Assembly: GCA_041661725.1 (NCBI GenBank)
Contig: JBAZTX010000003.1
Span: 218,794-282,793, forward strand
DNA: 64,000 nucleotides
Source of the DNA: Patescibacteria group bacterium
GTDB lineage: Bacteria > Patescibacteriota > Patescibacteriia > 2-12-FULL-60-25
Direction of reading: 5' to 3'
The notes beneath the pieces were generated by a model. The model saw nothing but the letters and a program-made list of their open reading frames with translations, was not told where the DNA came from and ran no database searches. Below are positions 7,237 through 29,746 of the stretch, in pieces. The first letter of the stretch is position 1. Each line of letters begins with the position of its first letter. Both the position numbers and the translations under genes were made by a program.

Positions 7237-7240
7237 TTAT

Positions 7241-10807: not shown

Positions 10808-11170
10808 TCACGGTCTGTGAAACGTTGCTTCGATGTTATTGCCCTCTGGATCGAGGACAAAGCCGCCATAATATTTCGGACCATAATCCGGACGCGGGCC
10901 GGGCGGGCCGTTGTCTTTGCCTCCGGAAGCAAGGGCGGCATCGTAGAAATCTTTTACCATCTGTTCTGATGTTGCCTTAAAACCGATGTGCGCATACTTG
11001 GCTTTTTCTTCGCCTAAGTTTAACCAAAAATCCCAGGCGTCGCCTTGCTTAAAGCCGGCATAGTCCTCGCCGTCCATCGCGAGCTCGTAGCCAAGCGGCT
11101 TGAGAGCTTTAACGTAAAAATCTTTGGCCCGCTGCATATCGCGGACAAACAATGAGACGTGATCGAGCAT
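10808..11170 (-). CDS. VOC (glyoxalase/bleomycin-resistance) family protein
   Basis: 120 aa. MLDHVSLFVRDMQRAKDFY...HIGF...FVLDPEGNNIE is the typical paired beta-alpha-beta-beta-beta pattern. Confidence 0.8.
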   Translation of the reverse strand: MLDHVSLFVRDMQRAKDFYVKALKPLGYELAMDGEDYAGFKQGDAWDFWLNLGEEKAKYAHIGFKATSEQMVKDFYDAALASGGKDNGPPGPRPDYGPKYYGGFVLDPEGNNIEATFHRP

Positions 11171-11306
11171 ATATTTGGGATTATGAATTATTTTTTTATC
11201 TTATCCGTTGTGCGGCATAAGTCAAACCGCCTGTTGATTGTTTTTGCACTTGCAATCAATAACGTACGGAGTAAGGTCAAAAGATAATTCATCTAACCGC
11301 AAACAT

Positions 11307-14761: not shown

Positions 14762-17700
14762 ATGATCTTCGAAGATCCAACCCGCAGACGCTGGCGGATT
14801 GCAGTCGCGTCCTTTACGCTCATGGCCTTGCTCGGCTTGGTTTTAGTTAGCCTTTCGGCGGCTGCACTTATGACCAACCCGGAGCTTCCGGGTTTGGATG
14901 ATGGGACTAAAACTGCAAACGCAGCGTCGAGCCAACAAACGTCGATAGATGTTTTTGATGCTGTGTCGCAACCAAAGACGACGGAACAATGGAAATACAC
15001 GGGACCTGCAGTCGATGCGACCTTGATGGGTGCGGCGGTTACCGGCACCGCGCTGCTTGCATCTGTTTCAAAAAAAGGTTCTGCACTCAGCTCGGCTTTT
15101 TTATTGCAGCAAGACTCAAACAGCGTGCGTTCTTTTAAGGGGCATACTGCAAATTTAGACGTTGTATATCCGGATTGGTTTTTTCTTTCGCGTACCGATT
15201 GTTCGGTCGATGAGCGCATTAACCCGGATGTGACTTCAGTGTTGCATTCATCCGGCGTAAATATTGTGGCAAGATTGACTGACGGTGAGGGTCAGGCGAG
15301 CTATCAAAAGCAAGCGTCCGCCGTGATGAACGATCCGACTCTGCGCACCTGCGTGGCGCAAAAGCTGGCGGAAGAGACAATAAAAAATGGTGGCAAGGGT
15401 TTGTTGGTAGACATCGAGTCGCTGGATCCTGCGGATGGAAATGCGTATTTGAGTTTTTTGATTGAGTTGCAAAAATATTTGCACGCGCAGAACATGTGGT
15501 TAATTGTTGTGGTGCCTTCGGGCAGCCAGGCTTATCCGGTTGATGCGATCTCCAAAATTTCCGATGCGGTTCTTGTCGTCATGCACGGCGAACATTACGC
15601 TGCGAGCGCGCCCGGTCCGCTCGCAAGCCAAGGTTGGTTTGAAGAAACTCTAAATCATTTTTCGCAGATTGTTCCCGCAGACAAGCTCTTGGTCGGCTTG
15701 GGATCTTACGGTATGGACTGGCCGATTGCGCCTACTGGTACTGCCAGCGGCCTGACTTACGGCGAAATCATGTCCACTGCAAAAGTCTCCGGGGCGTTGC
15801 CAAAACTTGCGCCGAAAAGTTTGAATACGACTTTCGGTTATCAAGATGCAAACGGAGCAGAGCACAACGTGTGGGTGCTGGATGCGCTTGCGTTGTGGAA
15901 TCAGTGGAAGAAAGTCCAAACCGAAAAATCTCTCGGCGTCGCGGTTTGGCGATTGGGTTCCGAAGATCCAAATATTTGGAGTTTTTTGGCGAAATCAAAT
16001 CCAAGTATTGATGCGCTTAAAACTATCGGATCTATTTACAGCGTTTATTCTTCCACCGGCTCAGAGATTTTTAAGATTCAGTCCAACCCAACAAACGGCA
16101 GCATAAACATTTCGCAAAACAAAGACGGTTTGATACAAAATGCTGATTATACCAAATTGCCGTCCGGTTATATTTTATCGAGAGTAGGGAGTGCGCCTCC
16201 GGAGAAATCTTTGGTCTTGGCTTTTAGCGGCGGTCCGGATCCGGTTTGGACTCAGCGCATCATGGATACGCTCTCTTCTTTTGGAGTTCCGGCAGTGTTT
16301 TTTGTCACCGGCAGTCAAGCTGGTAAATATCCCGACGTATTGCAAAAGATTTCTGCGGCCGGTTATGTCATCGGAAATCGCAGCGACATCAGCCCGTCTG
16401 ATTTGCAGAGCGTTCCGACCGATCAGTTGAGAACGGAAGTGAATGCAACGCAGCGCATGATTGAAAATGCGACAAACCGTCACAGTCTGTTGTTTGAAAC
16501 AAACTATCCAAATACTCCGGAAGACGTCGCGCCGCTGACAACCGTTGCGGATTTGGGTTATGTGATTGTTGCGCCGAATGTCACGCCTAAAGATTGGGAG
16601 TCGACGGATGCTGATCAGCTTGTGGCTGATATTGAAAAGCGGATTACGGCACCGGAAAGTCACATAATATCTTTGCATGACGGCGGAGGCGATCGATCGG
16701 TTTTGATTTCTGCACTCAAGACGTTGATTCCCGCACTGCAGTCAAAAGGATATAAATTTATACGCATGGACGAGGCGATCGGTGTCAGTCAAAATCAACT
16801 TCTTCCGTCATATAACGGCAATGAAGCGGTTTTTGTAACCGCGACAAACATCGTGGATCGTATGCGCAATTTGTTTTGGCCGACCATCTTTTGGCTTTTC
16901 TTGATGACCACGTCTTTCTCGCTGTTTAGAATTTTGTTCATGAGCATCTTTGTTCTGCGCTCGACTAAAAAACACGGACGCAACAAAATCAGGGCACCGG
17001 GGAACAAATTCGTTTCTGTTTTGATTCCGGCTTACAACGAAGAAAAAACGATAGGCAAAACATTAGAGTCTTTGCAGGCCAGTACTCATCAACGTATGGA
17101 GATGATTGTCATTGATGACGGAAGTACGGATAGGACGGCTGAAGTGGTTGAGGAATATGCGGCCAAAGATTCTCGCATACGCTTGATTCGCAAACCCAAT
17201 GGCGGCAAGGCGACGGCACTTAATATGGGAATGCGCGAAGCGACTTATGATATTGCGGTCACGATTGACGCTGACACGATTTTGTTGCCGGAAACGGTCA
17301 ATGAATTAATTAAGCCTTTCGGCGATCCCACGGTCGACGCGGTTTGCGGCAATGTAGAAGTCGGCAACGTGCACAATGTACTCACCGGTTTTCAGGCGCT
17401 TGAATATATCACGGCACAGAATTTTGATCGGCGTTGTTTTGAGGAATTAAATGCGATCAGCGTTGTGCCGGGCGCGACAGGCGCATGGAAACGTCAAAGG
17501 GTTTTGGATATCGGCGGTTATGAAAGCGACACGCTTACGGAAGATGCGGATTTGACCATCAAAATGCTGGCCAGCGGCGGTCGAATCGTTTACGCGCCAA
17601 ACGCGCGTTCCAGAACAGAAGCGCCGGATAACCTCAGAGATCTTTCCAAACAGCGTTTTCGTTGGAGCTTTGGCACCTTCCAGTGTCTGGGCAAATATTC

Positions 17701-18088
17701 AAACTACTTTTTTAGAGGCGCAGTCGGCTGGGTGGCTCTGCCTAACATTTTTATCTTTCAAATCATCTTTCCGCTGCTTGCTCCAATCGGCGATGCCGTA
17801 TTTATCTTGTCGTTGATCAGGGGGGATTTCTCAGTTTTGTTCTGGAGTTATATATTTTTTACGATCATGGACGTCATCGGTTCGATGTTCGCGTTTCTTT
17901 TGGAGCACAAACCAAAACGCCTGATGCTCTTTGTTTTGATTCAAAGGTTCTACTATCGTCAGTTCATGTACGTCACGATCATTCGTGCTATCATCGCCAT
18001 GCTGCGCGGCCGCCGTTACGGTTGGAACAAGCTTCAACGCACCGGCACGGTCGCCGCCGCTCCGTCGTTGGCTGAAAAAGCCGGTTGA
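14762..18088 (+). CDS. Tripartite membrane protein: GH18-like domain + degenerate NodB/CE4 deacetylase-like domain + GT2 processive glycosyltransferase (PgaC/IcaA-like)
   Basis: N-terminal TM, then a GH18-like region (GLLVDIESLD). The CE4-like region (PAVFFVTG, IISLHDGGG) has FSGGPD where TFDDG is expected. The GT2 region has VSVLIPAYNEE, DADT, TEDADLT and QRFRWSFG, followed by C-terminal TM helices. Confidence 0.8.
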   Translation: MIFEDPTRRRWRIAVASFTLMALLGLVLVSLSAAALMTNPELPGLDDGTKTANAASSQQTSIDVFDAVSQPKTTEQWKYTGPAVDATLMGAAVTGTALLASVSKKGSALSSAFLLQQDSNSVRSFKGHTANLDVVYPDWFFLSRTDCSVDERINPDVTSVLHSSGVNIVARLTDGEGQASYQKQASAVMNDPTLRTCVAQKLAEETIKNGGKGLLVDIESLDPADGNAYLSFLIELQKYLHAQNMWLIVVVPSGSQAYPVDAISKISDAVLVVMHGEHYAASAPGPLASQGWFEETLNHFSQIVPADKLLVGLGSYGMDWPIAPTGTASGLTYGEIMSTAKVSGALPKLAPKSLNTTFGYQDANGAEHNVWVLDALALWNQWKKVQTEKSLGVAVWRLGSEDPNIWSFLAKSNPSIDALKTIGSIYSVYSSTGSEIFKIQSNPTNGSINISQNKDGLIQNADYTKLPSGYILSRVGSAPPEKSLVLAFSGGPDPVWTQRIMDTLSSFGVPAVFFVTGSQAGKYPDVLQKISAAGYVIGNRSDISPSDLQSVPTDQLRTEVNATQRMIENATNRHSLLFETNYPNTPEDVAPLTTVADLGYVIVAPNVTPKDWESTDADQLVADIEKRITAPESHIISLHDGGGDRSVLISALKTLIPALQSKGYKFIRMDEAIGVSQNQLLPSYNGNEAVFVTATNIVDRMRNLFWPTIFWLFLMTTSFSLFRILFMSIFVLRSTKKHGRNKIRAPGNKFVSVLIPAYNEEKTIGKTLESLQASTHQRMEMIVIDDGSTDRTAEVVEEYAAKDSRIRLIRKPNGGKATALNMGMREATYDIAVTIDADTILLPETVNELIKPFGDPTVDAVCGNVEVGNVHNVLTGFQALEYITAQNFDRRCFEELNAISVVPGATGAWKRQRVLDIGGYESDTLTEDADLTIKMLASGGRIVYAPNARSRTEAPDNLRDLSKQRFRWSFGTFQCLGKYSNYFFRGAVGWVALPNIFIFQIIFPLLAPIGDAVFILSLIRGDFSVLFWSYIFFTIMDVIGSMFAFLLEHKPKRLMLFVLIQRFYYRQFMYVTIIRAIIAMLRGRRYGWNKLQRTGTVAAAPSLAEKAG

Positions 18089-18176
18089 TGAGTTTAGAGT
18101 TAGACGCAAGATTTTGCGTCTCTACACAAACTCTTCAACCCCTGTCGTCTGTCGTCTAATACCTGTTGTCTATATT

Positions 18177-18536
18177 ATGTTTACTGCCGCGAACGTTACA
18201 GTCATGGTTAAGGATTTGGATATGGCCATCGAATTTTATCGCGACGTGCTGGGTTTGGCATTGACAAATCGTTATCAAAATCATTGGGCGGAGATCAGAG
18301 GTCCTGATTTGTTGATAGGACTTCATCCTGCGGGCGATAAAAAAATCGAGAACAGCGGCAATCTCTCAATCGGTTTTGGGACGATGACTTTTGATCAAGA
18401 TGTATTGATGCTCGAAGAAAAAGGAATAAGACTTGAAGTTAAAGATGCAGAATTGAGCCGTATGGCCTATTTTAAAGATCCCGATGGCACGCCGCTTTAT
18501 GTGCGCGAGATGAAGGTGAGTGAAAGCGAGATGTAA
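18177..18536 (+). CDS. VOC (glyoxalase) family protein
   Basis: MFTAANVTVMVKDLDMAIEFYRDVLGL...YFKDPDGTPLYV. First ATG in the frame; the upstream part of the ORF-track ORF overlaps the previous gene. Confidence 0.75.
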   Translation: MFTAANVTVMVKDLDMAIEFYRDVLGLALTNRYQNHWAEIRGPDLLIGLHPAGDKKIENSGNLSIGFGTMTFDQDVLMLEEKGIRLEVKDAELSRMAYFKDPDGTPLYVREMKVSESEM

Positions 18537-18578
18537 AAAAAGATCGACCGAGAAGGTCGAACGAGAACGGGCCGACGT

Positions 18579-19307
18579 TTAGGCGTTGATCAGAGATTCC
18601 GCCATGTCAACCAGGTTGCGGAAGTAAGGGACGCCGGGGTAGTTGGACGGGCGGTAGATTCCTTGCGCGTCAAACAGAATCGGACACGCTCCGGCCGTGT
18701 ACGCTCCCTGGACGTCCGCCACAGGATGATCTCCGACGTGGGCGACGAGCTCTGCCGGCACGTCGGCTCTTGCGAATGTCCGGCGAAAGATTTCCGGATC
18801 GGGTTTACTGACGTCTTCGGTGCCGCTGTCGGTGACGAAGGCGAAGTGTTCCCGAATACCCAAACGCTTGAGGTCGCGTTCTAAATTGCCGTTGGCATTG
18901 GAGATGACTCCGAGCGTAAACCGAGTCTTGAGCAACTCGAGTGCCGGAATCACATCAGTGCCGAGGCCCATGAACCAGTTGTGGGTCATATGGTACTCGT
19001 TCGCCAGAATCGCGAATCTGCAGAGTCCGTCATCCGATACATGTCCGAGGCAACCCTCGACGATTGCGGTGTAGTAATCGACAGCGTTCTGCGGAATCGG
19101 AATTGCTGCGTGGTTAGTCATCTTGAACGGAGGCATGATCTTGGCACGGAAGGTGCGTTCGGCTTGCATGACTTGAGCTGTAGAAACTTCTGTGTCGAAG
19201 AAGTCGTTGATTGCAGTGGCCAGCGTGTTGTATCGCGGCCACATCAAGGTATGGCCGAGATCCAGCGTGATGAGTCTGGTCGCGGGGTTAAAAGATCGAC
19301 TTTGCAT
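18579..19307 (-). CDS. HAD-superfamily hydrolase-like protein (GC-richer, own promoter)
   Basis: Motif I-like LITLDLGHTL (second Asp replaced), ISNANG, VGDHPVADVQGAYTAGA. Strong SD (aggagg). Confidence 0.6.
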   Translation of the reverse strand: MQSRSFNPATRLITLDLGHTLMWPRYNTLATAINDFFDTEVSTAQVMQAERTFRAKIMPPFKMTNHAAIPIPQNAVDYYTAIVEGCLGHVSDDGLCRFAILANEYHMTHNWFMGLGTDVIPALELLKTRFTLGVISNANGNLERDLKRLGIREHFAFVTDSGTEDVSKPDPEIFRRTFARADVPAELVAHVGDHPVADVQGAYTAGACPILFDAQGIYRPSNYPGVPYFRNLVDMAESLINA

Positions 19308-19334
19308 CGGGTGCCTCCTGATTGGTGTGCGATT

Positions 19335-19363
19335 TTATTATCATTTGCCGATAAAACGGTCAA
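19335..19363 (-). promoter_or_regulatory. Sigma70-type promoter for 18579-19307
   Basis: Minus strand reads TTGACC, 17 nt spacer, TAATAA. Confidence 0.55.
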
Positions 19364-19485
19364 GATGAAAGCAGGTCGATCGAGGTGCGCCGGATGCGGC
19401 GCTTATTGTGTTTTGATCTTTAAAAGAGTAAATTGATTACCAATAACAATTCTACACATGTCGTCTGTTGTCTCTCGTCTAAACT

Positions 19486-20421
19486 ATGACCATCAAACTT
19501 TTTAATCAACTCTCCAAATCCGACGTCAACATCGCGGGCGGCAAAGGCGCATCGCTGGGCGAGATGACGCAGGCCGGCATTCCGGTGCCGCCGGGATTTG
19601 TAATTCTAGCTCAGGTTTTTGACGAGTTTCTAGCCAAGACGGATTTGACCCAAGAAATTAAATCTCAACTCGCCAAAGTCAATTATGATGACGTGTCATC
19701 GGTTGAACGCACATCGCGAATTATCAACGACTTGATCGACGACGCAAAGTTTCCGGAAGATTTGCAGGTAGAAATAATATCGGAATTTAAAAAATTTGGC
19801 ACAGAGTTCGTCGCTGTCCGTTCGTCTGCAACCGCGGAAGATTCTTCTGTCGCAAGTTGGGCGGGCGAATTGGAAAGTTTTTTGAATACGACGGAATCGA
19901 CATTGCTTGCGAACGTCAAAAAATGTTGGGCATCTTTGTTTACGCCGCGTGCTATCGTCTACCGCAACGAAAAAGGCATGAAGGACACACATGTATCCGT
20001 CGCGGTCGTTGTGCAGAAAATGGTGCAGTCAGAAGTCGCGGGCATCTGTTTTACTGTCCATCCCGTCACCAAAGACACCAATCAGATGATTATCGAAGCC
20101 TGTTGGGGCCTGGGAGAGTTTATCGTCGGCGGAATCGTTACTCCGGATTCTTATGTCATCGACAAGCGTGACGGAAAAATGATCGACGTCAATATCGCAG
20201 AACAAGAGACGATGCTCGTGTGCGGCAAAAACAGTAATGAGACAGTCGGCGTCCCGTCCGATAAAAAAGCCGCGCAAAAACTCGACGTTGTTCAAATCGG
20301 CAAACTCGCTTCCATCTGTCTTAACATCGAAAAGCATTACGGCTTTCCCTGCGATATCGAGTGGGGAATGGAAAACGGGGAGTTTTTTATTGTGCAGAGC
20401 AGGCCGATAACAACGTTATAA
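19486..20421 (+). CDS. Stand-alone PPDK_N-type ATP-grasp (PEP/pyruvate-binding family nucleotide-binding module)
   Basis: 311 aa. VNIAGGKGASLGEM...GIPVPPGFV...FVAVRSSATAEDS...WASLFTPRAIVYR...VAVVVQKMV...DIEWGMENGEFFIVQSRPIT matches the N-terminal module of PpsA/PPDK/rifampin phosphotransferase. No swivel or TIM-barrel domain is present. Confidence 0.85.
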   Translation: MTIKLFNQLSKSDVNIAGGKGASLGEMTQAGIPVPPGFVILAQVFDEFLAKTDLTQEIKSQLAKVNYDDVSSVERTSRIINDLIDDAKFPEDLQVEIISEFKKFGTEFVAVRSSATAEDSSVASWAGELESFLNTTESTLLANVKKCWASLFTPRAIVYRNEKGMKDTHVSVAVVVQKMVQSEVAGICFTVHPVTKDTNQMIIEACWGLGEFIVGGIVTPDSYVIDKRDGKMIDVNIAEQETMLVCGKNSNETVGVPSDKKAAQKLDVVQIGKLASICLNIEKHYGFPCDIEWGMENGEFFIVQSRPITTL

Positions 20422-20427
20422 CTCACC

Positions 20428-21510
20428 ATGCCCTTGTCACAGATCAAGTCCATCGAATTTTGGGCACGCGAATATCGCTTGCCGCTTTGGTGGTTGAACG
20501 ATCCGCGGCACGTATCAATTGGCGACAATACTTTCTTTATATTTAAGAATCCAATTTTGCATTGTTACTATGTCAACGGAAGAATGCAAAAAGAACATTC
20601 GTCCGGGCATGTTTATTTTTCAAAAGCTGACAGTTTTGCGCGATACATTGAACGGTCGCAAGCGATGATTGAGAAAATGCAAAAGGCTGAAGCGGATTTT
20701 TTTTGCAAAGATCTCAAATCTTTGACTGACAAAGAATTTTACGATGTATTTGACGGCTTTAGGGTTTTGTTAAAAGATTTTACCGCCCTGTACACCAGGA
20801 CTGAGGCTGAAAAGTTAAAAAAATTCGAAGGGACTAAAGACAAAAAAATAAAAGAAGAACTTTTTAAAGTCGGCAAAATTCGTTTCGAGCTAAGAAAATC
20901 CGTAGAGTCAATTTTTCATATTCTGCTCGGCGATGTTTTAAAAGAAATTGCCAGACGTTTTAAAATTAAATCAAAAGACTGGTTTTTCTATGATTGTGCC
21001 GAGGCGCAAAGTTTGTTTAATGGCCGAAAAGTCAGTCCGCGAGTGATAATGCAAAGACAAAAGGGTTACGCCGTGTTGAACATTAACGGCAAAAGGGAAC
21101 TTTTAGTCGGCAACGACTATAAAAAAGCCTGGGCGCTTGTAAAAAAAATGACTGTCCAAGATGATAAAAAGATTTTGCGGGGCTTGGTCGCACAGCCCGG
21201 AAAAGTCAAAGGAAAAGTTGAGCTGATTTTGCACAATGTGCGCAATTTATCAAAAAAAGTAAACGCATTTAAAGTCGGGAATATTCTGGTCACGGAAATG
21301 ACGACACCTGCGACCGTCGTCGCCTGCAAAAAGGCTGCCGCCATAATCACCGACGAAGGCGGAGTATTGTGTCATGCTGCAATCATCAGCCGCGAACTTA
21401 AAAGACCATGTATCGTCGGCACCAAAATTGCAACGCAAGTTTTGCATGACGGCGACGAGGTGGAGGTTGATGCGGATAAGGGAACGGTCATTATTATCAA
21501 GCGTATCTAA
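20428..21510 (+). CDS. Helical N-terminal domain + PEP-utilizer mobile (phosphohistidine swivel) domain protein, paralog A
   Basis: 360 aa. The C-terminus GKVKGKVELI...VTEMTTPATVVACKKAAAIITDEGGVLCHAAIISRELKRPCIVGT...EVEVDADKGTVI is a PEP-utilizers swivel with the catalytic His. The ~270 aa N-terminal region is of unknown function. Confidence 0.8.
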   Translation: MPLSQIKSIEFWAREYRLPLWWLNDPRHVSIGDNTFFIFKNPILHCYYVNGRMQKEHSSGHVYFSKADSFARYIERSQAMIEKMQKAEADFFCKDLKSLTDKEFYDVFDGFRVLLKDFTALYTRTEAEKLKKFEGTKDKKIKEELFKVGKIRFELRKSVESIFHILLGDVLKEIARRFKIKSKDWFFYDCAEAQSLFNGRKVSPRVIMQRQKGYAVLNINGKRELLVGNDYKKAWALVKKMTVQDDKKILRGLVAQPGKVKGKVELILHNVRNLSKKVNAFKVGNILVTEMTTPATVVACKKAAAIITDEGGVLCHAAIISRELKRPCIVGTKIATQVLHDGDEVEVDADKGTVIIIKRI

Positions 21511-21589
21511 GCGTCCAATATTCAGAATTCGATATTCAGCGCGCGATATAGTATAGTAGCGAGCGGATATTCGATATTCGTCATATAAT

Positions 21590-22699
21590 ATGAAACCCGT
21601 AATAAATTCATATCAGCCCTCGATGACCGAGTGGTTTGCGGCCATCGGCGAGGAAGAAGAGTCAAAAGCTTTTCGCGATGAGGATAATCGCAAAGTCGAC
21701 AGGCTGGAGATGTTGTATCAAGAAATCGGTTTGCCTTATGAAAGACCGGAAGAAATGTCAGCCAGGGATTTGGCGGACATGACGCCTCGATTCAAAATTA
21801 TCTTCGATGAGCGCGGTGATGAATTGTGTGCTATTCGTCTTGTCCCAAATAAACCCGAACTTCCAAAATTGCGCCAGCGAGGCGTGTCGATCCGTCAGTG
21901 TTACGAAAATTGGTTTTTAAAACAAGATATAAATCCGGATGATTATACGGCATATATTTGTCCGCATTCAGAGACGCTTAACTGGTCGGCGACAATTATC
22001 GTCGGCGATGAAAAAATTTACGGCGAGATGATCCGCGGTTTGCATAGTCAGTTGACACACGGCGAAACGGACGGAGAACTGCTGCATTTTGAGTATGACT
22101 TTAACGATTGGAAGTGGTCCAAACAAGACGACGAAGCGCAGTCGGTTATCCAAAGAATGATTGAGCTACTGCATGTCGAAGATAGATTGAAACAGCGCGC
22201 GCTTGAAGAAAAATTTAATTGCGAATTTTCTCACGACTATCTGAAAGGTTATTTTGAATCAACCGTTTGGCCGGATAATAAAGTTTATATAATTGATTAC
22301 AATCGTCTTTTGCCAAAATACTTGCCATCCGATTGGTCTGTCCGCGAAACAGCGGAAGCGACGTCGCAAGAAATAACAGGCGTAACGGCGCATCCGGGAA
22401 AAGTCAGCGGACGAGTTAGAATCGTTACGACTGAAAATATCGAAAATATGCAAATCGAAGATGGGGAAATTTTGGTTTGCGACAATACCGACGTTAGATT
22501 TTTGCCGCTCATGAAAAAAGCCGGCGCGATCGTCACCGACCGCGGAGGAATTTTGAGCCACGCGGCCATCATCTCTCGCGAGCTCGGCAGGCCCTGTATT
22601 ATCGGCACTAAAGTTGCGTCGCAAGTTTTGCATAATGGCGAGATGGTGGAGGTTGACGCGAGCAATGGAATTGTTACGATGCTGAAACGCGCTGCGTGA
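21590..22699 (+). CDS. Unrelated N-terminal domain + PEP-utilizer mobile domain protein, paralog B
   Basis: 369 aa. Swivel: GKVSGRVRIV...AGAIVTDRGGILSHAAIISRELGRPCIIGT...MVEVDASNGIV. The N-terminal ~270 aa is dissimilar to paralogs A and C by eye. Confidence 0.8.
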   Translation: MKPVINSYQPSMTEWFAAIGEEEESKAFRDEDNRKVDRLEMLYQEIGLPYERPEEMSARDLADMTPRFKIIFDERGDELCAIRLVPNKPELPKLRQRGVSIRQCYENWFLKQDINPDDYTAYICPHSETLNWSATIIVGDEKIYGEMIRGLHSQLTHGETDGELLHFEYDFNDWKWSKQDDEAQSVIQRMIELLHVEDRLKQRALEEKFNCEFSHDYLKGYFESTVWPDNKVYIIDYNRLLPKYLPSDWSVRETAEATSQEITGVTAHPGKVSGRVRIVTTENIENMQIEDGEILVCDNTDVRFLPLMKKAGAIVTDRGGILSHAAIISRELGRPCIIGTKVASQVLHNGEMVEVDASNGIVTMLKRAA

Positions 22700-22700
22700 T

Positions 22701-23852
22701 ATGGACATGAACCCCGATGAGCTGATAGCTTATTTAAAATCGCAAAAATGGTTTTATGGCGTGCGGATTGATTCCGCATTGCTTTTTTATTCCGCCAAAC
22801 AAGAGGGAATGCGCAAGCATGTTAAAAATATGCACGGCATCGATTTTGCCGAGACGCTTCGTGTCCCTTTAGACGGCAAGCCCGTCCGTGTAATTAATAC
22901 GGAGCAGGCTAAAGCGTTCCATGGCGTCAGTCTGACGAAGATCCAGAAAGATCCGTCAATTTTGTCATTGTGCATCAAAGAGAATGATGAACTTTGGGCG
23001 CGTATTGCCGGAGAATGCGATGATCTGGATCGAGTGATAAATGTCGGGGACGATCAAACCGCGATTCAGATGTTCAAAAAAATATCATCATCTTATGCCG
23101 AGGCCAGTGCGCAATTTATAGTCATTTTTTCTTTGGGTTTAAAGCTTACGGAACTCGGCGCCACAGGGGCGACAAAGCTGATTCTTGAGCAGCATGACAG
23201 TTGGCGTAATCAAATTGCGTTTAAAGAAGAACGGATGGGCGAGCATTGGTATCGTTTTTTTGATCTCATGCGTCAAAAGTATGATTTGAAAAGTTCGGCT
23301 AAGGATTTGATGGGTTGTCTCTCGTTGCCGGAAGTTTTGGCCTGGCTCGACGACAGATCGGTCGATGTTGATAATCTTGTTGCCACGCGTCAAAAGCAAG
23401 ATTTTGTTTATCACGATTCTTGTAAAGAACGTTACGTTGTCGATGATGCCGATCTTGTTTCACGAATCGTTTCGCAACTTAGTTCACAGACACAGGATGT
23501 ATCATCGTCCGCTGAGATCAAAGGCCAGCCGGCATTCGTCGGAGACGATTTTGTGACGGGAGAAGTCTTGGTTATAAAAACTAAAAATGAACTTAATGCG
23601 AAAGCGCCTTTTATGTCCGGTAAGATAATCGTCGCAGAACAAACAACGCCGTATTACATTCAATATCTTAAAAATGTAAAAGCGATTATCACCGACGAAG
23701 GCGGAATTACTTGCCATGCCGCTATTGTCAGCCGAGAGATGTGCATCCCATGCATCATCGGTACGAAAAACGCGACTCAAATTTTGCAAGACGGTGATTT
23801 GGTGGAAGTAGACGTCGGGCGTGGAATTATTAAGGTTATAAAGTCAGTATAA
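22701..23852 (+). CDS. Helical N-terminal domain + PEP-utilizer mobile domain protein, paralog C
   Basis: 383 aa. Swivel: VTGEVLVIK...VKAIITDEGGITCHAAIVSREMCIPCIIGT...LVEVDVGRGII. The start lies 1 nt after the previous stop. Confidence 0.8.
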   Translation: MDMNPDELIAYLKSQKWFYGVRIDSALLFYSAKQEGMRKHVKNMHGIDFAETLRVPLDGKPVRVINTEQAKAFHGVSLTKIQKDPSILSLCIKENDELWARIAGECDDLDRVINVGDDQTAIQMFKKISSSYAEASAQFIVIFSLGLKLTELGATGATKLILEQHDSWRNQIAFKEERMGEHWYRFFDLMRQKYDLKSSAKDLMGCLSLPEVLAWLDDRSVDVDNLVATRQKQDFVYHDSCKERYVVDDADLVSRIVSQLSSQTQDVSSSAEIKGQPAFVGDDFVTGEVLVIKTKNELNAKAPFMSGKIIVAEQTTPYYIQYLKNVKAIITDEGGITCHAAIVSREMCIPCIIGTKNATQILQDGDLVEVDVGRGIIKVIKSV

Positions 23853-23926
23853 AAAACGAGTACAAATGATGATGCCCGCCGGAGAGTCTCCGACGGGCGT
23901 TGTATTGAAGCGAAATCGAGTGGATG

Positions 23927-24442
23927 CTAGAGACGGAACTCCGAGGTGACAATCAGGCCGGACGCTGTAGATGAGAGTATCACGCCATGACACTCTTCTA
24001 GTGGCGCGATGACAGTGCTTGTCAGGCCGTAGACCAGACACTCGATGAACGGCGAGTGCCCAACTCCGAGCAGGTGCACATTCAGGCCGAGGTGACCGAG
24101 TTCGTGTAGAAACTCTAGCGTCATGCGAGCCGCTTCCTCGCGAACCAGCTCATTTTCCGGAACAAGGTTCTGGTCATACTTGGCGAAATATGCTCGCCAA
24201 GCGCCCATGCGTTTTGTGTCGAGAGCGTCGAGTTCGTGGCACTGTCGAATGAGCGGAAAGTCGCTGGCGCCTTCAGCGAAGGCTTGCAGGGTCCCCGACG
24301 TGCGCGGCTGATGGGATATCGCAAAGTGCGTATACCCTTTGCCTCGCATCTGCTCGCGGCCGACCACGATCGCATGTGCGATGCCTTTCGGGGCGAGCTC
24401 GCCGTTGATGTGATGCGCGTGTCGACGCAGTTCGATGAGCAT
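23927..24442 (-). CDS. Histidine phosphatase (phosphoglycerate-mutase-like) superfamily protein, GC-richer
   Basis: MLIELRRHAHH (RH(G/A)-type catalytic motif) and a second catalytic His in LLGVGHSPFIE. First ATG with SD aaggagga used. Confidence 0.65.
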   Translation of the reverse strand: MLIELRRHAHHINGELAPKGIAHAIVVGREQMRGKGYTHFAISHQPRTSGTLQAFAEGASDFPLIRQCHELDALDTKRMGAWRAYFAKYDQNLVPENELVREEAARMTLEFLHELGHLGLNVHLLGVGHSPFIECLVYGLTSTVIAPLEECHGVILSSTASGLIVTSEFRL

Positions 24443-24508
24443 TGCGCTCCTCCTTGTGAAGTTTCGACGTCTTTTGCGAAGGGCTAATTCCCTGGGCATT
24501 GACTGAAG

Positions 24509-24537
24509 AACATACAGGAAAATGACTTACTAGTCAA
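24509..24537 (-). promoter_or_regulatory. Sigma70-type promoter for 23927-24442
   Basis: Minus strand reads TTGACT, 17 nt spacer, TATGTT. Confidence 0.55.
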
Positions 24538-24566
24538 GGGTCGTATTAGACACTTTGTAGCTTTGT

Positions 24567-25577
24567 ATGCAAAATGGCCTTAAGTCTATGCAGGTCGCTT
24601 CACACAAAAAAATCGTTGTCCTCGGCGGCGGAACGGGTACGTTTACCGTTCTTTCCGGACTCAAATATCATCCCGTCGACCTTTCAGCTGTCGTTTCCAT
24701 CGCCGATGACGGCGGCTCGACCGGGATTTTACGCGACGAACTCGGTGTTTTGCCGCCGGGCGACATTCGGCAGTGTCTGGTTGCTCTTGCAAACGGCGAT
24801 CAGGTTTTGCGCGATCTTTTTAATTACCGTTTTACGCAAGGCGGACTGGACGGTCACAACTTTGGAAATATATTCCTGTCTGCTCTTGAAAAAATCACCG
24901 GCGATCCGTTGGCCGCGGTGCGAGAAGCTAATCGAATTTTAAACGTCAAAGGCCGCGTTATTCCGGTTTCTTCGCGCGCCACGGATTTGTATGCAGAGTT
25001 GGATGATGCAACTGTGGTTAAGGGCGAACATGCGATAGACAAGCCGTCTTCAAATCGTGCGGCCATTCGACGCTGCTTTCTTTCTCCCGAGGTCCCCGCA
25101 AACCTCGAAGCGCTTGATGCGATTCGTGCGGCCGATATCATCGTGATGGGTCCGGGCGATTTGTATACGAGTTTGATTCCGGTTCTTCTCGTCAAAGGAA
25201 TTGCGCAAGCAATGGCGGAAAGCAAAGCCAAAAAAGTTTTGGTCATCAATTTGACTTCCAAGAACGGACAAACGCAGGGTTACAAGGCGAGTGATTTTTG
25301 TGAAGTCGTATCCAGACACATCTTGCCCGCATCGATCGACGTCGCCATTCTCAATTCTGCAAAACCATCGGATGAAGTGGCGCGGAGATACATTGAGGCA
25401 GGAGATCATGTTATTGAGGACGATTTGGATGTCGGCTCTATGCAGATTTGGCGCAGTGATTTACTGTCAGATGATATAGTGCCAAATGTTCCGGGGGATA
25501 GGCTTAAGCGCAGTCTTTTGCGCCATGATCCCGATAAATTAGCGGCTGCTATTCTTGCCGCGGCAGGAGTGGCATAA
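24567..25577 (+). CDS. YvcK / CofD-family (UPF0052, gluconeogenesis factor-like) protein
   Basis: KIVVLGGGTGTFTVLSGLK...SIADDGGSTGILRDELGVLPPGDIRQCLVAL...GPGDLYTSLIP. Confidence 0.85.
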   Translation: MQNGLKSMQVASHKKIVVLGGGTGTFTVLSGLKYHPVDLSAVVSIADDGGSTGILRDELGVLPPGDIRQCLVALANGDQVLRDLFNYRFTQGGLDGHNFGNIFLSALEKITGDPLAAVREANRILNVKGRVIPVSSRATDLYAELDDATVVKGEHAIDKPSSNRAAIRRCFLSPEVPANLEALDAIRAADIIVMGPGDLYTSLIPVLLVKGIAQAMAESKAKKVLVINLTSKNGQTQGYKASDFCEVVSRHILPASIDVAILNSAKPSDEVARRYIEAGDHVIEDDLDVGSMQIWRSDLLSDDIVPNVPGDRLKRSLLRHDPDKLAAAILAAAGVA

Positions 25578-25636
25578 TGACAATTAACAATGAATAATTA
25601 ACAATGAATAATTTCATTAAGAAACGACTAATAACT

Positions 25637-26944
25637 ATGAAATACGCCTACGCTATTGCTATAAGTCTCGCTTTGTTCGGAGCGGGATGCTTTTCGAATC
25701 GTCCCACGTCGCTCGTCCCACGTCCCACGTCGACGGAGCAGAATGCGACGACGACAGTGGATCAAAATCAGTCTGCACCCGGGACGGGAAGCTGGCTGCA
25801 ATACAGAAACTACAATTATGGTTTTGATTTCAAATATCCTGCGAATGCAGTCGAGACTTATAGAAGCGATTCGGCGACAGGGACTGTTTTTACTTTGGAT
25901 CTCGGTCCGACCGTTGCAAGCTCAACCGCGCTTTCTGTACCGGAAGATACGCTTGATGTTAAAATTATTTCTGACGAGATGAGTGCTGATCTTAAAAGCA
26001 GAATTAATATCGAAAACAATTGTTATAATGAGGACGGAGAGTCAGCGCGGGTAACGCCAGGAGTAATCTATAACGGACAACAGGTCTGCGTCGTCGAAAG
26101 CGCGGGCGCGGCTGCAGGGAATCGTTACAATCAATATTGGTATACTATTCCGCTCGGTAAAAAGAATCTGGTTTTTGCTTTCACGATTCACTCGGTCAAT
26201 TGTCAAAACTTCGATAAACCGGGTGCGTGTCTGGCGTTTGATGAAAGCCGCGATTCGCTGGTGAGCAAAATGATAATGTCTACGCTAAATACTTTTACAC
26301 CTAGTAAGAGCAAAGAGAATTTGAATTTGCGATTTGAGACAAAGTCGATTAAAGAAGAGGCTAAAGATCATTCGGTTGATGTGAAATATCCGGTCATGTT
26401 TGGCGGAGATGCTGCGGTGAGAGGTGTGATCAACGGCGCGATCAATACTTACATCAGCACAACGACGCAGACTTTTGCTAGATTGCTTAAGACGGAAGGT
26501 AAAGCGTCACCTGGACCTTTTGTGTTACAGGGCAATTATTCGATTTATAACGTCAGTTCGAATGTTGTCAGTATCGTTTTTAACGGCTACGAATACACGG
26601 GCGGTGCACATGGGATTTCGATTTTCGAGACTTTTGTTTTTGACACTACGACAGGCAACCGTTTGTCGTTTGATGACATCTTCAAATCCGACAGCGGTTA
26701 CCTAAAAATCGTTTCAGATTATGCAATCGCTGAACTTTCCAAGAAGCCGGATATGGATGTTGAGGGCTTAAAATCAGGCGCCGCACCGGATTTGAAAAAT
26801 TATCAATATTACTACTTGAATCAAGATGGCCTCGTTATCATCTTCCCGGAATATCAAGTTGCGCCGTACGCAGCGGGTCCACAGGTTGTGACCGTGCCTT
26901 ACGCCTCACTGAAAGACATAATGAAACTGGAAACTAGAAACTAG
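25637..26944 (+). CDS. Lipoprotein with DUF3298/DUF4163-type (RsiV/PdaC-like) C-terminal domains
   Basis: Lipobox LALFGAGC and YEYTGGAHGISIFETFVFDTTTGNRLSFDDIF...LVIIFPEYQVAPYAAGPQVVTVPY. The last codons and the stop lie inside a PE-1 half element. Confidence 0.75.
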   Translation: MKYAYAIAISLALFGAGCFSNRPTSLVPRPTSTEQNATTTVDQNQSAPGTGSWLQYRNYNYGFDFKYPANAVETYRSDSATGTVFTLDLGPTVASSTALSVPEDTLDVKIISDEMSADLKSRINIENNCYNEDGESARVTPGVIYNGQQVCVVESAGAAAGNRYNQYWYTIPLGKKNLVFAFTIHSVNCQNFDKPGACLAFDESRDSLVSKMIMSTLNTFTPSKSKENLNLRFETKSIKEEAKDHSVDVKYPVMFGGDAAVRGVINGAINTYISTTTQTFARLLKTEGKASPGPFVLQGNYSIYNVSSNVVSIVFNGYEYTGGAHGISIFETFVFDTTTGNRLSFDDIFKSDSGYLKIVSDYAIAELSKKPDMDVEGLKSGAAPDLKNYQYYYLNQDGLVIIFPEYQVAPYAAGPQVVTVPYASLKDIMKLETRN

Positions 26945-26955
26945 AAAGAGCAAAT

Positions 26956-27201
26956 ATGCAAAAAAGATCCTTTGTACCCAATTGGCTCGGGTTGATCAAG
27001 TATTTACGTGACCCGAAATCAGATTGGAAACCGAAGGCTACAATCGTCGTAGCAATCTTGTATTTAATCTGGCCGATAGATCTCTTGCCTGACATAGCGC
27101 CAATACTCGGTTGGCTGGATGATATCGGCATCACGTCGCTCGCCATTGCATATTTGCTGCATGCGTCAGGTCAGTACTCAAAACAAATAGAAAAAGAATA
27201 A
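26956..27201 (+). CDS. DUF1232 (YkvA-like) small membrane protein
   Basis: WPIDLLPDIAPILGWLDDIGI is the family signature. Confidence 0.75.
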   Translation: MQKRSFVPNWLGLIKYLRDPKSDWKPKATIVVAILYLIWPIDLLPDIAPILGWLDDIGITSLAIAYLLHASGQYSKQIEKE

Positions 27202-27204
27202 TTT

Positions 27205-28023
27205 ATGTTCAACTTTATATCCGCAGTCGTACTCGGTTTGGTGGAAGGCGTGACGGAATTTTTGCCGGTGTCATCAACGGGACATTTGATTTTAATCAAT
27301 CAATGGTTTTCTTTCGGCGAACCTTTTACAAAACTTTTTGATATCGTCATTCAATCCGGCGCGATTCTGGCGGTGATAGTTTTATTTTGGAAAGATGTCT
27401 GGCCACCCGCCCTCACCCCAAACCCCTCTCCCACAAGAGCAGGAGAGGGGCTTTCGAAAGAGAGTTGGTTAAGAAACTGGAAGACGGTTTTGATTGCATT
27501 CGTGCCAACTGCGATCATTGGACTGTTATTCGGCAAGATCGCAGAGCAATATCTTTTCACTCCGACGGTTGTCGCCTTGGCGTTGATTTTTTACGGGATT
27601 GTTTTTTTGATTTTGGAAAAACACGACTCGCGAAACGAAAAGTCAGTTGTGACTTTTGGCGATGCTGCAATTATCGGTCTGATCCAAGCTCTCGCACTTG
27701 TGCCTGGCACATCAAGGTCCGGTGCGACGATTATTGGTATGCTTATTTTGGGCTATACGCGCCCGGTTGCCGCTAAGTTTTCTTTCTTGCTCGCGATTCC
27801 GACTTTAATCGCTGCCGGCGGATACTCGCTTTTAAAATACGATGCTTCGATTTCGAGTTCGGAGTGGCTGTTACTGTTTATCGGTTTTATTGTATCTTTC
27901 GCCTCGGCTTTTTTGGTAGTCAAATGGTTTATGGCGTACATCAGCCGCAAAAGCTTCGTTCCTTTTGCCTGGTATCGCCTGATTTTGGGCTTAGTTGTCA
28001 TATTATTCGTCATTTGGGGTTGA
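27205..28023 (+). CDS. uppP: Undecaprenyl-diphosphate phosphatase
   Basis: VEGVTEFLPVSSTGHL and PGTSRSGATI motifs with 8 hydrophobic segments. It carries an in-frame hairpin-repeat insertion (see 27405-27457). Confidence 0.9.
   Translation: MFNFISAVVLGLVEGVTEFLPVSSTGHLILINQWFSFGEPFTKLFDIVIQSGAILAVIVLFWKDVWPPALTPNPSPTRAGEGLSKESWLRNWKTVLIAFVPTAIIGLLFGKIAEQYLFTPTVVALALIFYGIVFLILEKHDSRNEKSVVTFGDAAIIGLIQALALVPGTSRSGATIIGMLILGYTRPVAAKFSFLLAIPTLIAAGGYSLLKYDASISSSEWLLLFIGFIVSFASAFLVVKWFMAYISRKSFVPFAWYRLILGLVVILFVIWG
27405..27457. repeat. GC-rich hairpin element inserted in frame in uppP
   Basis: cccctctcc-cacaagagca-ggagagggg (27423-27450) encodes ...LTPNPSPTRAGEGLS... in a loop region. Related ccccc..ggggg hairpins occur at 43930-43985, 44826-44843 and 58907-58930. 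Confidence 0.75.
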
Positions 28024-28096
28024 CAATGTTTATAAATTAGTACAATCTAAGATATTCCTCGGAATGGTTCCGAGGTTGCACCTTGAGAGGATCATC

Positions 28097-29746
28097 ATGA
28101 AGATGAGAATTGTGGCGCTGCTCATTGCAGCCGTTGTTCTCTGTTTCGGTACGCGGGCTATGGCCCAAGCGCCGTCGCAGGGTCCGACGTCGGCATACCC
28201 GGGCGGCCGCTACACGCGGTACCCGGATCTCAATAGTGCAGTTTGCGACGACAAAATCGCCGCAAACTGTGTCATCACAGTTGACGGGACTGACTATGTC
28301 CCGGGCCTCGTGCACGGCCGCACGCGGCGCGAGACAGCGCTCGCCAACTGCAAGTTGGCGTTCACCCTCCGCCTGCCGGTTCTTGCGCGTTCTGCGCGGG
28401 CACCTCAGCAGTTGGGGGACTTGTTTACGTCAACCGGGGCGCCTCGTGCCTCCGTGTCGTTGAACGCAGCGTGTTTGAAAGCTCTGGGCCGTCGTGATTT
28501 TGATGCCCAGATGCGTGCCCGCGATGCAGCATTCGAAGCTCGTCGTCGCGCGGCAGCTGCCGCTGCAGCATCCTCAGCGACTGTCGTCGCGCGAGCGCCT
28601 GCGCCGTCCGCGGCTCCGGCGCCAACGTACGTCATGACTCCGGAAGAGGCAGCGCGTCTCAAGCAGCTCGAAGCTGCTCTGGAAGCAGAGAGCGCGAGCA
28701 CTCGTGCTCGCGCGCCCAGCAAGCCGGCCGCAAGGCCGACTGTGACCGTAGCGCGAGTTCGTCCCGCAACTGCGCCAAGCGATTGGTGCGGCCTGGGCGA
28801 CAACCTGCAGCTCGTATCCGTCAACGACACCGACGTTGCACGCATCAGGGTTCTCCCCGGTGCGCAGTTCGCGAGCGTTCAGCGCTCGTGCATCGCCAAG
28901 AAGTTCAATGTAGAGTGGGGGATGGCTTACGCCGACTCGCACAACAGCTACAAGAATTTCATCGGAGCCTGTTTCATGCCCGACCGCAAGGTCGAGCTCG
29001 ATACTGACCGCATGTCGGTCAAGTCGTGGGACAAGACCAAGCTCGACGGTCCTGTCGACGTCACATTCATGAAGGACTGCGAGGCCAAGGGCGGCGAGTT
29101 TCGATTCGCTCTCCAGGCCGGACAGATCATCACTCTCTCGGCAAAGAACTCAGAAAGCGAGAGTCAGCCGACTCCGCCGACGGTAAGCGCGCCCAACGAG
29201 GCGCCCGACGAGACTCCGCCTCTCGAGGCAGAGTCCAACCCCGCACCTTCAACGGATCCGACAGCCGTCGCCCTGGCGACGCCGCCGGTGCCAGAATCGT
29301 CTGCGGGAAGTCCCGCGCCTGTTGCATCGCTCGAGGGGGCCGTTGCCTCCTCACCGACTGCGTCAGCTTCGAATGTGTTGCCTCCCGTTAACGTCGCGGC
29401 AACGCGTCCCGCGCCTAGCGGGGACTTCCAACGGGCCGTGCAACAACATGAAGCCGCTCAGCGGCTCATGAAGTGGCCGGCATACATAGCGCTGTTGCTC
29501 GCAGCAGCGCTAATGATCGTTTGGATTGTGGTACGGAGGCGGAGGATTGAACTCCGCGACCCGTACGTCCCAATACGTATGCGGACAGAAGAGGGGGTTC
29601 CCTCAAGAATAACGATAGTACCCGCGCCTGAGCCTCCGCCTCTCGAGGCAGTGAGCATCTCGTTGGAGACCAGCGAGGAACTGAGCGCTTCTGACCCGTT
29701 CCCTTCGATACGTCCGCCGCAGAATGCGCCCGGCGGAATCAGTTGA
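28097..29746 (+). CDS. GC-rich secreted, C-terminally membrane-anchored Ala/Pro-rich protein, hypothetical
   Basis: Signal peptide [25 protein letters not shown], Cys-containing domains, low-complexity A/P/R tracts and a C-terminal TM + stop-transfer (ALLLAAALMIVWIVVRRRR). G/C-ending codons dominate. SD gagagg, with TTGACA at 28020 and TACAAT at 28041. Confidence 0.7.
   Translation: MKMRIVALLIAAVVLCFGTRAMAQAPSQGPTSAYPGGRYTRYPDLNSAVCDDKIAANCVITVDGTDYVPGLVHGRTRRETALANCKLAFTLRLPVLARSARAPQQLGDLFTSTGAPRASVSLNAACLKALGRRDFDAQMRARDAAFEARRRAAAAAAASSATVVARAPAPSAAPAPTYVMTPEEAARLKQLEAALEAESASTRARAPSKPAARPTVTVARVRPATAPSDWCGLGDNLQLVSVNDTDVARIRVLPGAQFASVQRSCIAKKFNVEWGMAYADSHNSYKNFIGACFMPDRKVELDTDRMSVKSWDKTKLDGPVDVTFMKDCEAKGGEFRFALQAGQIITLSAKNSESESQPTPPTVSAPNEAPDETPPLEAESNPAPSTDPTAVALATPPVPESSAGSPAPVASLEGAVASSPTASASNVLPPVNVAATRPAPSGDFQRAVQQHEAAQRLMKWPAYIALLLAAALMIVWIVVRRRRIELRDPYVPIRMRTEEGVPSRITIVPAPEPPPLEAVSISLETSEELSASDPFPSIRPPQNAPGGIS

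Follow-up and report, generated by a model that had tools for sequence, protein, structure and literature searches.

A candidate one-to-many split dikinase: one ATP-grasp gene and three swivel-domain genes at a patescibacterial locus

Bacteria of the Candidate Phyla Radiation (CPR) and the DPANN archaea account for a sizeable part of microbial diversity, and they combine tiny genomes and scavenged metabolites with many conserved genes that carry no assignment. One such locus lies in a 64,000-nucleotide stretch of a Patescibacteria group bacterium (contig JBAZTX010000003.1 of assembly GCA_041661725.1, positions 218,794 to 282,793, hereafter the window), where four successive genes, g1 to g4, raise the question of what a free ATP-binding module related to phosphoenolpyruvate (PEP) synthase does beside three different proteins that each end in a phosphohistidine swivel domain. 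The answer that we favour, by analogy and with somewhat better than even confidence, is that the locus encodes a one-to-many split ‘X, water dikinase’ system, in which one ATP-grasp subunit would charge several acceptor-and-carrier subunits. A sequence-only reading of this DNA had already proposed a modular kinase for several small molecules, with a role in antibiotic or xenobiotic inactivation or in metabolite capture; we confirm its four-gene observation and find partial support for the small-molecule kinase, while the xenobiotic role is not borne out. Gene coordinates refer to the window and are collected in Table 1; L-numbers denote related loci or contigs, and P-numbers homologous proteins from protein searches.

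Domains and conservation of the four genes

The four open reading frames (ORFs) are co-directional, with gaps of 6, 79 and 1 nt, and lie where the sequence-only reading had placed them. PPDK_N (PF01326) is the sole Pfam domain of g1 (E 3e-99, profile positions 2-311 of 328), its translation carries the motifs GGKGASL, VAVRSSATAED and DIEW...VQSRP, and its best NCBIfam match is the N-terminus of PEP synthase at 339 bits, versus 71 bits for PPDK. Each of the other three proteins has a single, C-terminal match to the swivel domain PF00391 (g2 E 3e-23, g3 E 2e-23, g4 E 8e-25), and the three swivel peptides quoted in the earlier reading occur verbatim in the translations. The PEP/pyruvate TIM barrel (PF02896) was found neither in g1 to g4 nor in any other large ORF of the window by Pfam scan, and its hallmark motif GTNDL is absent from all six frames of the window and of the first 32 related loci (L001-L032); as a positive control, the same motif test flagged eight genuine PEP synthases of 761-890 aa in metagenome loci. 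The domain content, and with it the lack of a TIM barrel in the window, is thus what the earlier reading had expected, and the adjacent TIM-barrel gene in relatives that it had named as evidence against itself does not appear in L001-L032 by the same motif. A hidden TIM-barrel partner was therefore dropped as a candidate.

The swivel domains of g2, g3 and g4 share 39-50% pairwise identity, and the motif T/S-x-x-G-G-x-x-x-H with its catalytic His is invariant in all three families, including His316 and the TDEGG motif across 35 homologues of g2 and His339 in g4, which likewise forms a conserved family of its own. Within a family, swivel identity across genomes is 66-71%, versus 47-52% between families, so that the swivels group by family rather than by genome, and the paralogues are old and maintained, neither recent duplicates nor decaying copies. 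In sequence, g1 and the three swivel domains are nearest to the N-terminal and central domains of PEP synthase (NCBIfam; PDB 9dae, 8a8e, 2ols), which is why we propose the water-dikinase type, and their NCBIfam scores lie far under every family cut-off.

Because all of these parts derive from domains of the PEP-synthase type, and because the N-terminal domain of g3 (g3N) is itself predicted to be ATP-grasp-like (see below), one could suppose that the locus represents decayed or fragmented tandem ppsA or ppdK genes without a function of their own. Homologue searches, which placed the genome among the Patescibacteria and returned 1,075-5,347 matches per family at E<=1e-3, assign each of g2, g3 and g4 to a conserved, full-length and frameshift-free family of its own with 29-91% identity among aligned homologues, and several long contigs carry two or three of these families together. 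The g3 family has a mean column identity of 63% and 57 invariant columns, which argues that g3N is not decayed. Furthermore, the catalytic His is invariant, the family-specific swivel clades are maintained, and we found no remnant of a TIM barrel in the window or in related loci; unlike PpsA and PPDK, the locus has no PF02896, and the N-terminal domains of g2 to g4 have no counterpart in those enzymes. We consider decay to be effectively refuted by the conserved families, the invariant His and the swivel clades, and leave it next to no probability, in agreement with the earlier view that this is not simply a fragmented ppsA or ppdK; degraded N-terminal regions, which would have told against that view, were not what we observed.

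Batteries and fusions in related genomes

To describe the wider distribution we use the term battery for a g1-type gene with its swivel genes. A scan of species-representative genomes with g1, using custom hidden Markov model (HMM) classification, clustering of N-terminal regions and a reach of 10 kb, yielded 26 informative loci. Exactly one copy of g1 was present in 26/26, at least one swivel gene lay within 10 kb of it in 25/26, and at least two did so in 17/26, with a maximum of six (L007, L010). Almost every swivel gene runs in the direction of g1, the one exception on the opposite strand being in L019, and the products of these genes fall into at least 19 N-terminal families in this 26-locus sample. 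Gene order is shuffled even among close relatives: g1-g2-g3-g4 in the window, g1-g3-g2-g4 in L018, g1-F4-g4-g3 in L012 and g1-g4-g3 in L003. A metagenome scan added larger sets, with seven swivel genes beside g1 in L045, six in L061 and a run of nine in L054. The arrangement is therefore widely conserved beyond this contig, as the sequence-only reading had hoped to see. Batteries occur across CPR and DPANN genomes, where they are annotated as ‘PEP-utilizing enzyme’ or ‘PEP synthase’.

The split form also has natural fused counterparts. Chains that join PPDK_N, the N-terminal domain of g2 (g2N) and a swivel were found in P0043, L015, L033 and L098, with a further g2-type fusion in L075; fusions of PPDK_N to g4-type modules occur in P0261, P0271 and P0275; and PPDK_N, g3N and swivel are joined in five independent representatives of 632-699 aa (P0375, P0390, P0401, P0407, P0364). 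Polyproteins with one PPDK_N and two, three or six swivel modules are represented by P0376 (1047 aa), P0379 (1494 aa) and P0421 (2648 aa), respectively, and L042 and L046 each encode one with three. In L006, an archaeal metagenome-assembled genome (MAG), one PPDK_N and three swivel modules share a 1667-aa protein (2996-7999), after which come five more swivel genes, and a sixth, fused to HTH_17, runs off the end. The clearest case is L033 (Ga0172379_10010313), which is 99.8% identical over 11.3 kb to window positions 18139-29476: at position ~2280 it has CAA in place of the g1 stop codon TAA, and since g2 follows in frame after a 6-nt spacer, this change fuses g1 and g2 into a 674-aa ORF of PPDK_N, g2N and swivel. 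The split and fused forms are thus one nucleotide apart in near-identical strains, and a sequencing error in either record is possible. The domain order of rifampin phosphotransferase (RPH), which the earlier reading had seen in these genes, holds for g1 and g2 and is literally fused in L033 and other genomes.

Given that there is one g1 per locus, that the number of swivel genes varies, and that polyproteins carry one PPDK_N with two to six swivels, comparative genomics strongly supports one ATP-grasp common to several swivel subunits, and hence the shared free subunit of the sequence-only reading.

Two side observations concern the sampled batteries. Eight of the loci (L017, L020, L022-L026, L032) come from MAGs labelled ‘uncultured Gammaproteobacteria bacterium’ (TPA), and their g1 is 67-71% identical to that of Patescibacteria and sits in CPR-like batteries; the label may be wrong. 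In L026 and L032, 132-aa swivel-only ORFs (10870-11268) directly follow g1 and overlap its end; these could be diffusible phosphocarriers, or artefacts of ORF calling or frameshifts.

Split dikinases with one ATP-grasp gene and one swivel gene are already known, namely PpsAB of Thauera aromatica, CreHI of Corynebacterium glutamicum, AcvAB of Sphingobium SYK-6 and HpeHI of Rhodococcus rhodochrous GD02 (PMC12167813, PMC12624787). In HpeHI, the most thoroughly established of the four, HpeI is the ATP-grasp protein and HpeH combines a domain like the rifampin (RIF)-binding domain with a swivel domain, and in both HpeHI and PpsAB the ATP-grasp subunit is separate, no stable complex forms, activity depends on the His and AMP is produced (PMC12167813). 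The heterodimeric kinases AcvAB and HpeHI yield AMP, whereas the unrelated kinase MarK does not (PMC12624787). Like these four systems, the locus has a separate PPDK_N gene adjoining a swivel gene and no TIM barrel; g2 matches their second subunit in having a predicted RPH-like N-terminal domain and a C-terminal swivel with the catalytic His, and g4 does so weakly, whereas the N-terminal domain of g3 is ATP-grasp-like, not RPH-like. It also differs from the 1:1 systems in having three swivel subunits, and up to six to nine in relatives, in acceptor domains of ~240-270 aa versus ~470-500 aa, and, with respect to the aromatic-catabolism dikinases, in its CPR host and the lack of aromatic-catabolism genes nearby in the window. 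Against PRK08296 (NF006153), g2 to g4 score 83-100 bits, aligned over the swivel region only, with a cut-off of 578; the positive control, a 592-aa protein of a deltaproteobacterial 1+1 pair (L029), matches PRK08296.1-5 at 830 bits.

The remark of the sequence-only reading that it knew of no described system with this one-to-three split therefore needs qualifying: the 1:1 split is known, and only the 1:N form is seemingly new. We found no description of a one-to-many dikinase system from CPR bacteria in the open-access literature, and the 1:N battery, its acceptor domains and the recurrent neighbours of the histidine-phosphatase superfamily appear to be undescribed. The split principle is not new, and the 1:N arrangement, with many new acceptor domains of which one is ATP-grasp-like, is a substantial variant of it. 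Batteries are widespread in CPR bacteria and apparently unstudied there. Labels such as ‘PEP synthase’ on them probably inflate the gluconeogenic capability of metabolic reconstructions. Viewing them as modular dikinases, each battery having a single subunit for ATP binding and as many as nine exchangeable acceptor-plus-carrier subunits, would supply a concrete biochemical hypothesis, open to testing, for dozens of protein families that are so far uncharacterised, and would carry the recently defined two-component dikinase subfamily beyond aromatic catabolism into a new biological context. The combinatorial architecture, with its natural split, fused and polyprotein forms, would itself be new, and the modules could serve as phosphorylation biocatalysts.

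Candidate acceptor domains and a proposed mechanism

What distinguishes the three partners is their N-terminal ~250-270 aa, which show no mutual similarity by BLASTP. When N-terminal regions only were compared by hhalign, g2N and the N-terminal domain of g4 (g4N) gave a weak match (probability 66%, E 5e-5, 186 columns), and g3N matched neither; the earlier impression that the middle gene is unrelated to the other two agrees with this.

We made AlphaFold2 (AF2) models of g2 and g3 and compared them with the PDB by Foldseek. The g2 model (pLDDT 92.8) shows a beta-hairpin and long-helix domain followed by the swivel, and its top PDB matches are the RPH structures 5fbt, 5fbu, 5hv1 and 5fbs (E 1e-10 to 3e-11, 230-408 columns). 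The TMq of 0.39-0.40 exceeds the ~0.25-0.27 of a swivel-only match, and the NCBIfam models for RPH, PRK06241 and PigC reach back to g2 residue ~170-180. Based on this structural match beyond the swivel and on the NCBIfam alignments, g2N is predicted to be a compact relative of the substrate-binding domain of RPH and HpeH. For g4, models of the PRK06241/RPH type align from residue ~168-224 onward, and a distant relationship of g4N to g2N is weakly but plausibly indicated by the profile comparison.

RPH is a single chain with ATP-grasp (1-314), RIF-binding (327-754) and swivel (767-865) domains, and its authors placed it in a wide superfamily of small-molecule dikinases whose middle domains diverge (PMC4844700). 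As in RPH and PigC/RedH, the order ATP-grasp, middle domain, swivel is reproduced by g1 plus g2; unlike in RPH, the genes are split and the middle domains, at 240-270 aa, are about half the size. Since RPH is the top structural match of g2 and the superfamily is so broad, the battery might be a set of RPH-like enzymes that inactivate antibiotics or other xenobiotics, as the sequence-only reading had guessed. Yet the RPH equivalog models NF041857 and NF000283 have cut-offs of 999 and 1700 bits, against which g2 to g4 score 30-62 and g1 183-268, and the loci look core-like and conserved in CPR genomes, with housekeeping or cell-envelope contexts rather than resistance islands. PADLOC gave no matches, and we found neither g1 relatives on viral contigs nor any viral or mobile association. 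An antibiotic or xenobiotic role thus seems very improbable to us, and a defence system was rejected on the PADLOC and viral-contig results.

The g3 model (pLDDT 88) instead matches PPDK (1kbl/1dik, 315 columns, TMq 0.41), and its swivel sits docked against the nucleotide-binding side. It also matches swivel-free structures (E ~1e-5, 206-302 columns), namely D-Ala-D-Ala ligases, PurD, MdnC and, for RPH, the ATP-binding domain in isolation (5hv6). As these have no swivel, g3N is predicted to be a divergent ATP-grasp fold rather than an acceptor domain of unknown kind, which the sequence-only reading did not anticipate. Invariant residues of the family include an Arg/Lys cluster (R83, K93, R95, R97) together with E223 and D236, and the stretch E223...D236-x-N238-R239 resembles the E...Q-S-R nucleotide/Mg motif of g1. 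It is a narrow family, comprising 186 representative clusters in a set of 1.84e9 proteins. In one member, P0378 (736 aa), g3N and a swivel share a chain with NTPase_I-T (DUF84) and a methyltransferase, and this hints weakly at a link to nucleotides.

From the homology to PEP synthase, RPH, PpsAB and HpeHI, we propose that g1 would bind ATP and, in a transient complex, pyrophosphorylate the swivel His of each partner (His316 in g2, His324 in g3, His339 in g4). The gamma-phosphate would leave as Pi, and the swivel would swing back to its own N-terminal domain and hand the beta-phosphate to an acceptor bound there, for a net reaction of ATP + X + H2O -> AMP + Pi + X-P, where X would differ from partner to partner. 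This is the chemistry expected of the two-component dikinases, with ATP giving AMP, Pi and a phospho-acceptor through pyrophospho- and phospho-His, and by analogy we expect it here. In g2 and g4 the acceptor would be held by compact helical domains related to the RPH/HpeH substrate-binding domain. In g3 a remodelled ATP-grasp would form the second site, so that a nucleotide-like or another strongly anionic molecule is the probable acceptor; the consistent pairing and fusion of g3 with a complete PPDK_N suggests that this site serves an acceptor and is not a redundant charging site. We infer both the trans-charging of several partners by g1 and the small-molecule, rather than protein, nature of the acceptors.

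Neighbouring genes and competing explanations

Convergent with g4 lies a gene for a 171-aa protein, probably starting at the ATG at 24439 (an upstream ATG would extend the ORF to 24499). Homologues of ~171-173 aa stand beside batteries in seven loci, including some whose context is otherwise different (L003/L013, L014, L047, L061, L069), and four homologues share the invariant motifs RRH[AS], RT, GH[ST]PFIEC and EC.G. The window copy has no Pfam match, and a profile of the family found none in the PDB; in three homologues, however, His_Phos_1 (PF00300) is reached below threshold (E 7e-4, 7e-3 and 8e-3; 16-20 bits vs a cut-off of 21.7). Judging from these sequence signatures, the protein is probably a divergent member of the histidine-phosphatase superfamily, and possibly SixA-like. 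Matches of the single sequence to the PDB were discarded as His-tag artefacts. Other neighbours of the same superfamily recur, with a 309-aa His_Phos_1 family in four loci (E 6e-9) and a further protein in L006 (E 1e-8), and two more families carry RHGE or IRHS motifs without a Pfam match. Batteries also adjoin an HD-domain protein in five loci, a Na+:solute symporter in four and TrmB-like regulators in eight. The symporters fit uptake followed by trapping through phosphorylation, and in the proposed mechanism the phosphatase-like neighbour may serve either to reset His~P or to hydrolyse a product.

These neighbours are also what one would expect of the main rival explanation, a regulatory phosphorelay in which g1 is a charging kinase resembling Enzyme I (EI) of the phosphotransferase system (PTS) or VadK, the swivel proteins act as effectors under phospho-regulation or as carriers, their N-terminal domains being outputs or modules for docking to proteins instead of sites for small molecules, and the phosphatase-like protein provides a SixA-type reset of the phosphohistidine signal. 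VadK of M. tuberculosis (Rv1127c) pairs a PPDK-derived ATP-grasp with a swivel and lacks a TIM barrel; it phosphorylates itself on His and acts on enzymes as a regulator by protein interaction (PMC13400623). In sister batteries, moreover, swivels occur as fusions with a GHKL/MORC-S5 ATPase module or with HTH_26, MarR-like or HTH_17 domains, which one would hardly expect as the acceptor domains of a metabolic kinase; the TrmB-like regulators and the free swivel-only ORFs of L026 and L032 point the same way. In the PTS, phosphate passes from EI to HPr to the EII proteins. Its EI has a homologous swivel domain, and one charging enzyme there serves many downstream specificities; it is charged by PEP through a TIM barrel, however, where here the ATP-grasp would do so, and unlike in the PTS the swivels sit on the specificity subunits and we saw no HPr or EII homologues.

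Set against a phosphorelay, g2 and g4 are similar to the domain with which small-molecule dikinases bind their substrates, the window partners g2 to g4 have no DNA-binding or other recognisable output domain by Pfam, and the N-terminal domains have numerous invariant residues (Arg, His, Tyr and Trp) that look like catalytic pockets. At least 19 N-terminal families for one kinase would be unusual for a signalling pathway, and the histidine-phosphatase superfamily acts mostly on small phosphoesters, which makes its presence ambiguous. We therefore regard a phosphorelay as unlikely, though as an explanation to be kept in serious view.

Several observations weigh against the dikinase reading itself. 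The recurring histidine-phosphatase genes and the HTH- and GHKL-fused swivels suit a phosphorelay at least equally well. The g2 and g4 N-terminal domains, at ~240-270 aa, are much smaller than the RIF-binding domain (327-754) or HpeH (~640 aa), and the two proteins score 47-107 bits where curated cut-offs are 578-999. The ATP-grasp assignment of g3N comes from a single AF2 model with low Foldseek TM-scores (0.24-0.44), and hhalign of g3N against the g1-family profile is not significant (E 0.46), although the alignment pairs ELCAIRLVP with EFVAVRSSAT. Finally, with an ATP-grasp-like domain of its own, g3 might charge itself as VadK does, without g1, and more distant g3-type genes in L037 and L039 have no g1 within 10 kb. 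A link between g3N and PPDK_N at the level of sequence was dropped, given the hhalign result and profile searches of the PDB (A2, A3) that gave swivel matches only; g3 likewise has no PF01326 match, and the PRK05878 model aligns to its swivel alone.

The last of these points amounts to a narrower alternative, that g3 works by itself as an autokinase of the VadK or mini-PPDK kind and charges its own His from ATP, leaving only g2 and g4 dependent on g1. Its predicted fold, with the swivel docked as in PPDK 1kbl/1dik, and the conservation of the Mg/nucleotide-type residues E223, D236, N238 and R239 are in keeping with this, and like VadK it would combine an ATP-grasp-fold domain with a phosphohistidine swivel and no TIM barrel. 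Unlike in VadK, whose PPDK_N is recognisable, g3N is undetectable as PPDK_N by sequence; it lacks the N-terminal region with the GGK motif and is 60 aa shorter. Moreover, g3 adjoins a separate, complete PPDK_N and in some genomes is fused behind it: g3-type genes stand beside g1 in 13/13 of the g1-anchored loci that contain them, and in the five or more independent PPDK_N, g3N and swivel fusions a second charging domain would be redundant. Self-charging by g3 accordingly strikes us as decidedly unlikely.

The dikinase reading can also be carried further, to a CPR- and DPANN-specific hub for phosphoryl distribution in which one ATP-grasp loads many swivel-His carrier-enzymes that together replace many conventional salvage kinases in these scavenging organisms, the g3 His passes a phosphoryl or pyrophosphoryl group to a nucleotide-like acceptor at the remodelled ATP-grasp site, and dedicated proteins of the histidine-phosphatase superfamily reset the carriers. 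The scheme would loosely resemble one E1 serving many E2s, or one EI serving many EIIs, and the g3 reaction would be, for example, NMP -> NDP/NTP at the cost of ATP -> AMP, which to our knowledge is not a known reaction of this superfamily. We put this forward as a speculation that is rather unlikely to hold in full.

The remaining surroundings of the locus gave less. A HAD hydrolase lies divergently upstream of g1, and it was rejected as a partner, as it is kept only in the syntenic close relatives L018, L009, L011 and L008. A link to the cell-envelope neighbours (GT2/deacetylase/GH18, CofD/YvcK-like, PdaC/DUF3298, BacA) was rejected for a similar reason, in that it reflects synteny in L001, L009, L011 and L018 only, and the context differs in L003, L005 and L014. 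A scan for promoters and terminators returned weak consensus matches only, among them a possible promoter in the 79-nt gap between g2 and g3, and was uninformative.

Table 1. Features of the locus (window coordinates) and of related batteries (coordinates of the named locus)
Feature	Position	Strand	Product	Description
g1	19486-20421	+	311 aa	stand-alone PPDK_N ATP-grasp, PEP-synthase type
g1 stop codon TAA	20419-20421	+		followed by 6-nt spacer CTCACC, then g2 in the same frame
g2	20428-21510	+	360 aa	N-terminal domain ~1-245; swivel ~250-360; His316 at 21373-21375
g3	21590-22699	+	369 aa	N-terminal domain ~1-250 (21590-22339); swivel ~262-367; His324 at 22559-22561
g4	22701-23852	+	383 aa	N-terminal domain ~1-268; swivel ~274-381; His339 at 23715-23717
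Neighbour of g4	23927-24439	-	171 aa	convergent; putative divergent histidine-phosphatase-superfamily protein
HAD-family hydrolase gene	18579-19307	-		divergent, upstream of g1; PF00702, PF13419
GHKL/HTH-fused swivel genes in sister batteries	L004 4502-5767; L015 8310-9980; L020 2799-4481; L028 8100-9989; L006 13769-15430			
Recurrent battery neighbours	L007 7169-8098; L044 1790-2677; L109 9486-10418; L059 10362-10829; L007 9611-10975			RHG/RHS families, HD, symporter

Two antisense ORFs overlie the swivel of g3 (22297-22779, minus strand, 160 aa; 22259-22708, minus strand, 149 aa) and appear ‘conserved’ in up to eight loci; this is the opposite-strand shadow of the conserved swivel coding sequence, and no gene. 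By Pfam scan the other large ORFs of the window are ordinary genes, including those for trigger factor, RecQ, an ABC transporter, a radical SAM protein, a CofD-like protein, BacA, a sigma factor, HflX, an H+-PPase, glycerol kinase, alpha-2-macroglobulin, GpsA and the GT2/deacetylase/GH18 protein. The last of these (14762-18088, plus strand) is an unusual all-in-one exopolysaccharide enzyme of 1108 aa that unites a GH18-like domain with a polysaccharide deacetylase and a glycosyltransferase of GT2/chitin-synthase-like type. A 583-aa protein rich in Ala, Pro and Ser (27995-29746, plus strand) has no Pfam match and coincides with a local spike in GC content, 0.59 vs ~0.47 in the rest of the window. 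The membrane H+-pyrophosphatase is encoded at 33625-35619 (plus strand), with another H+-PPase near the battery of L003, and the bacterial alpha-2-macroglobulin, of 1766 aa, at 38632-43932 (plus strand).

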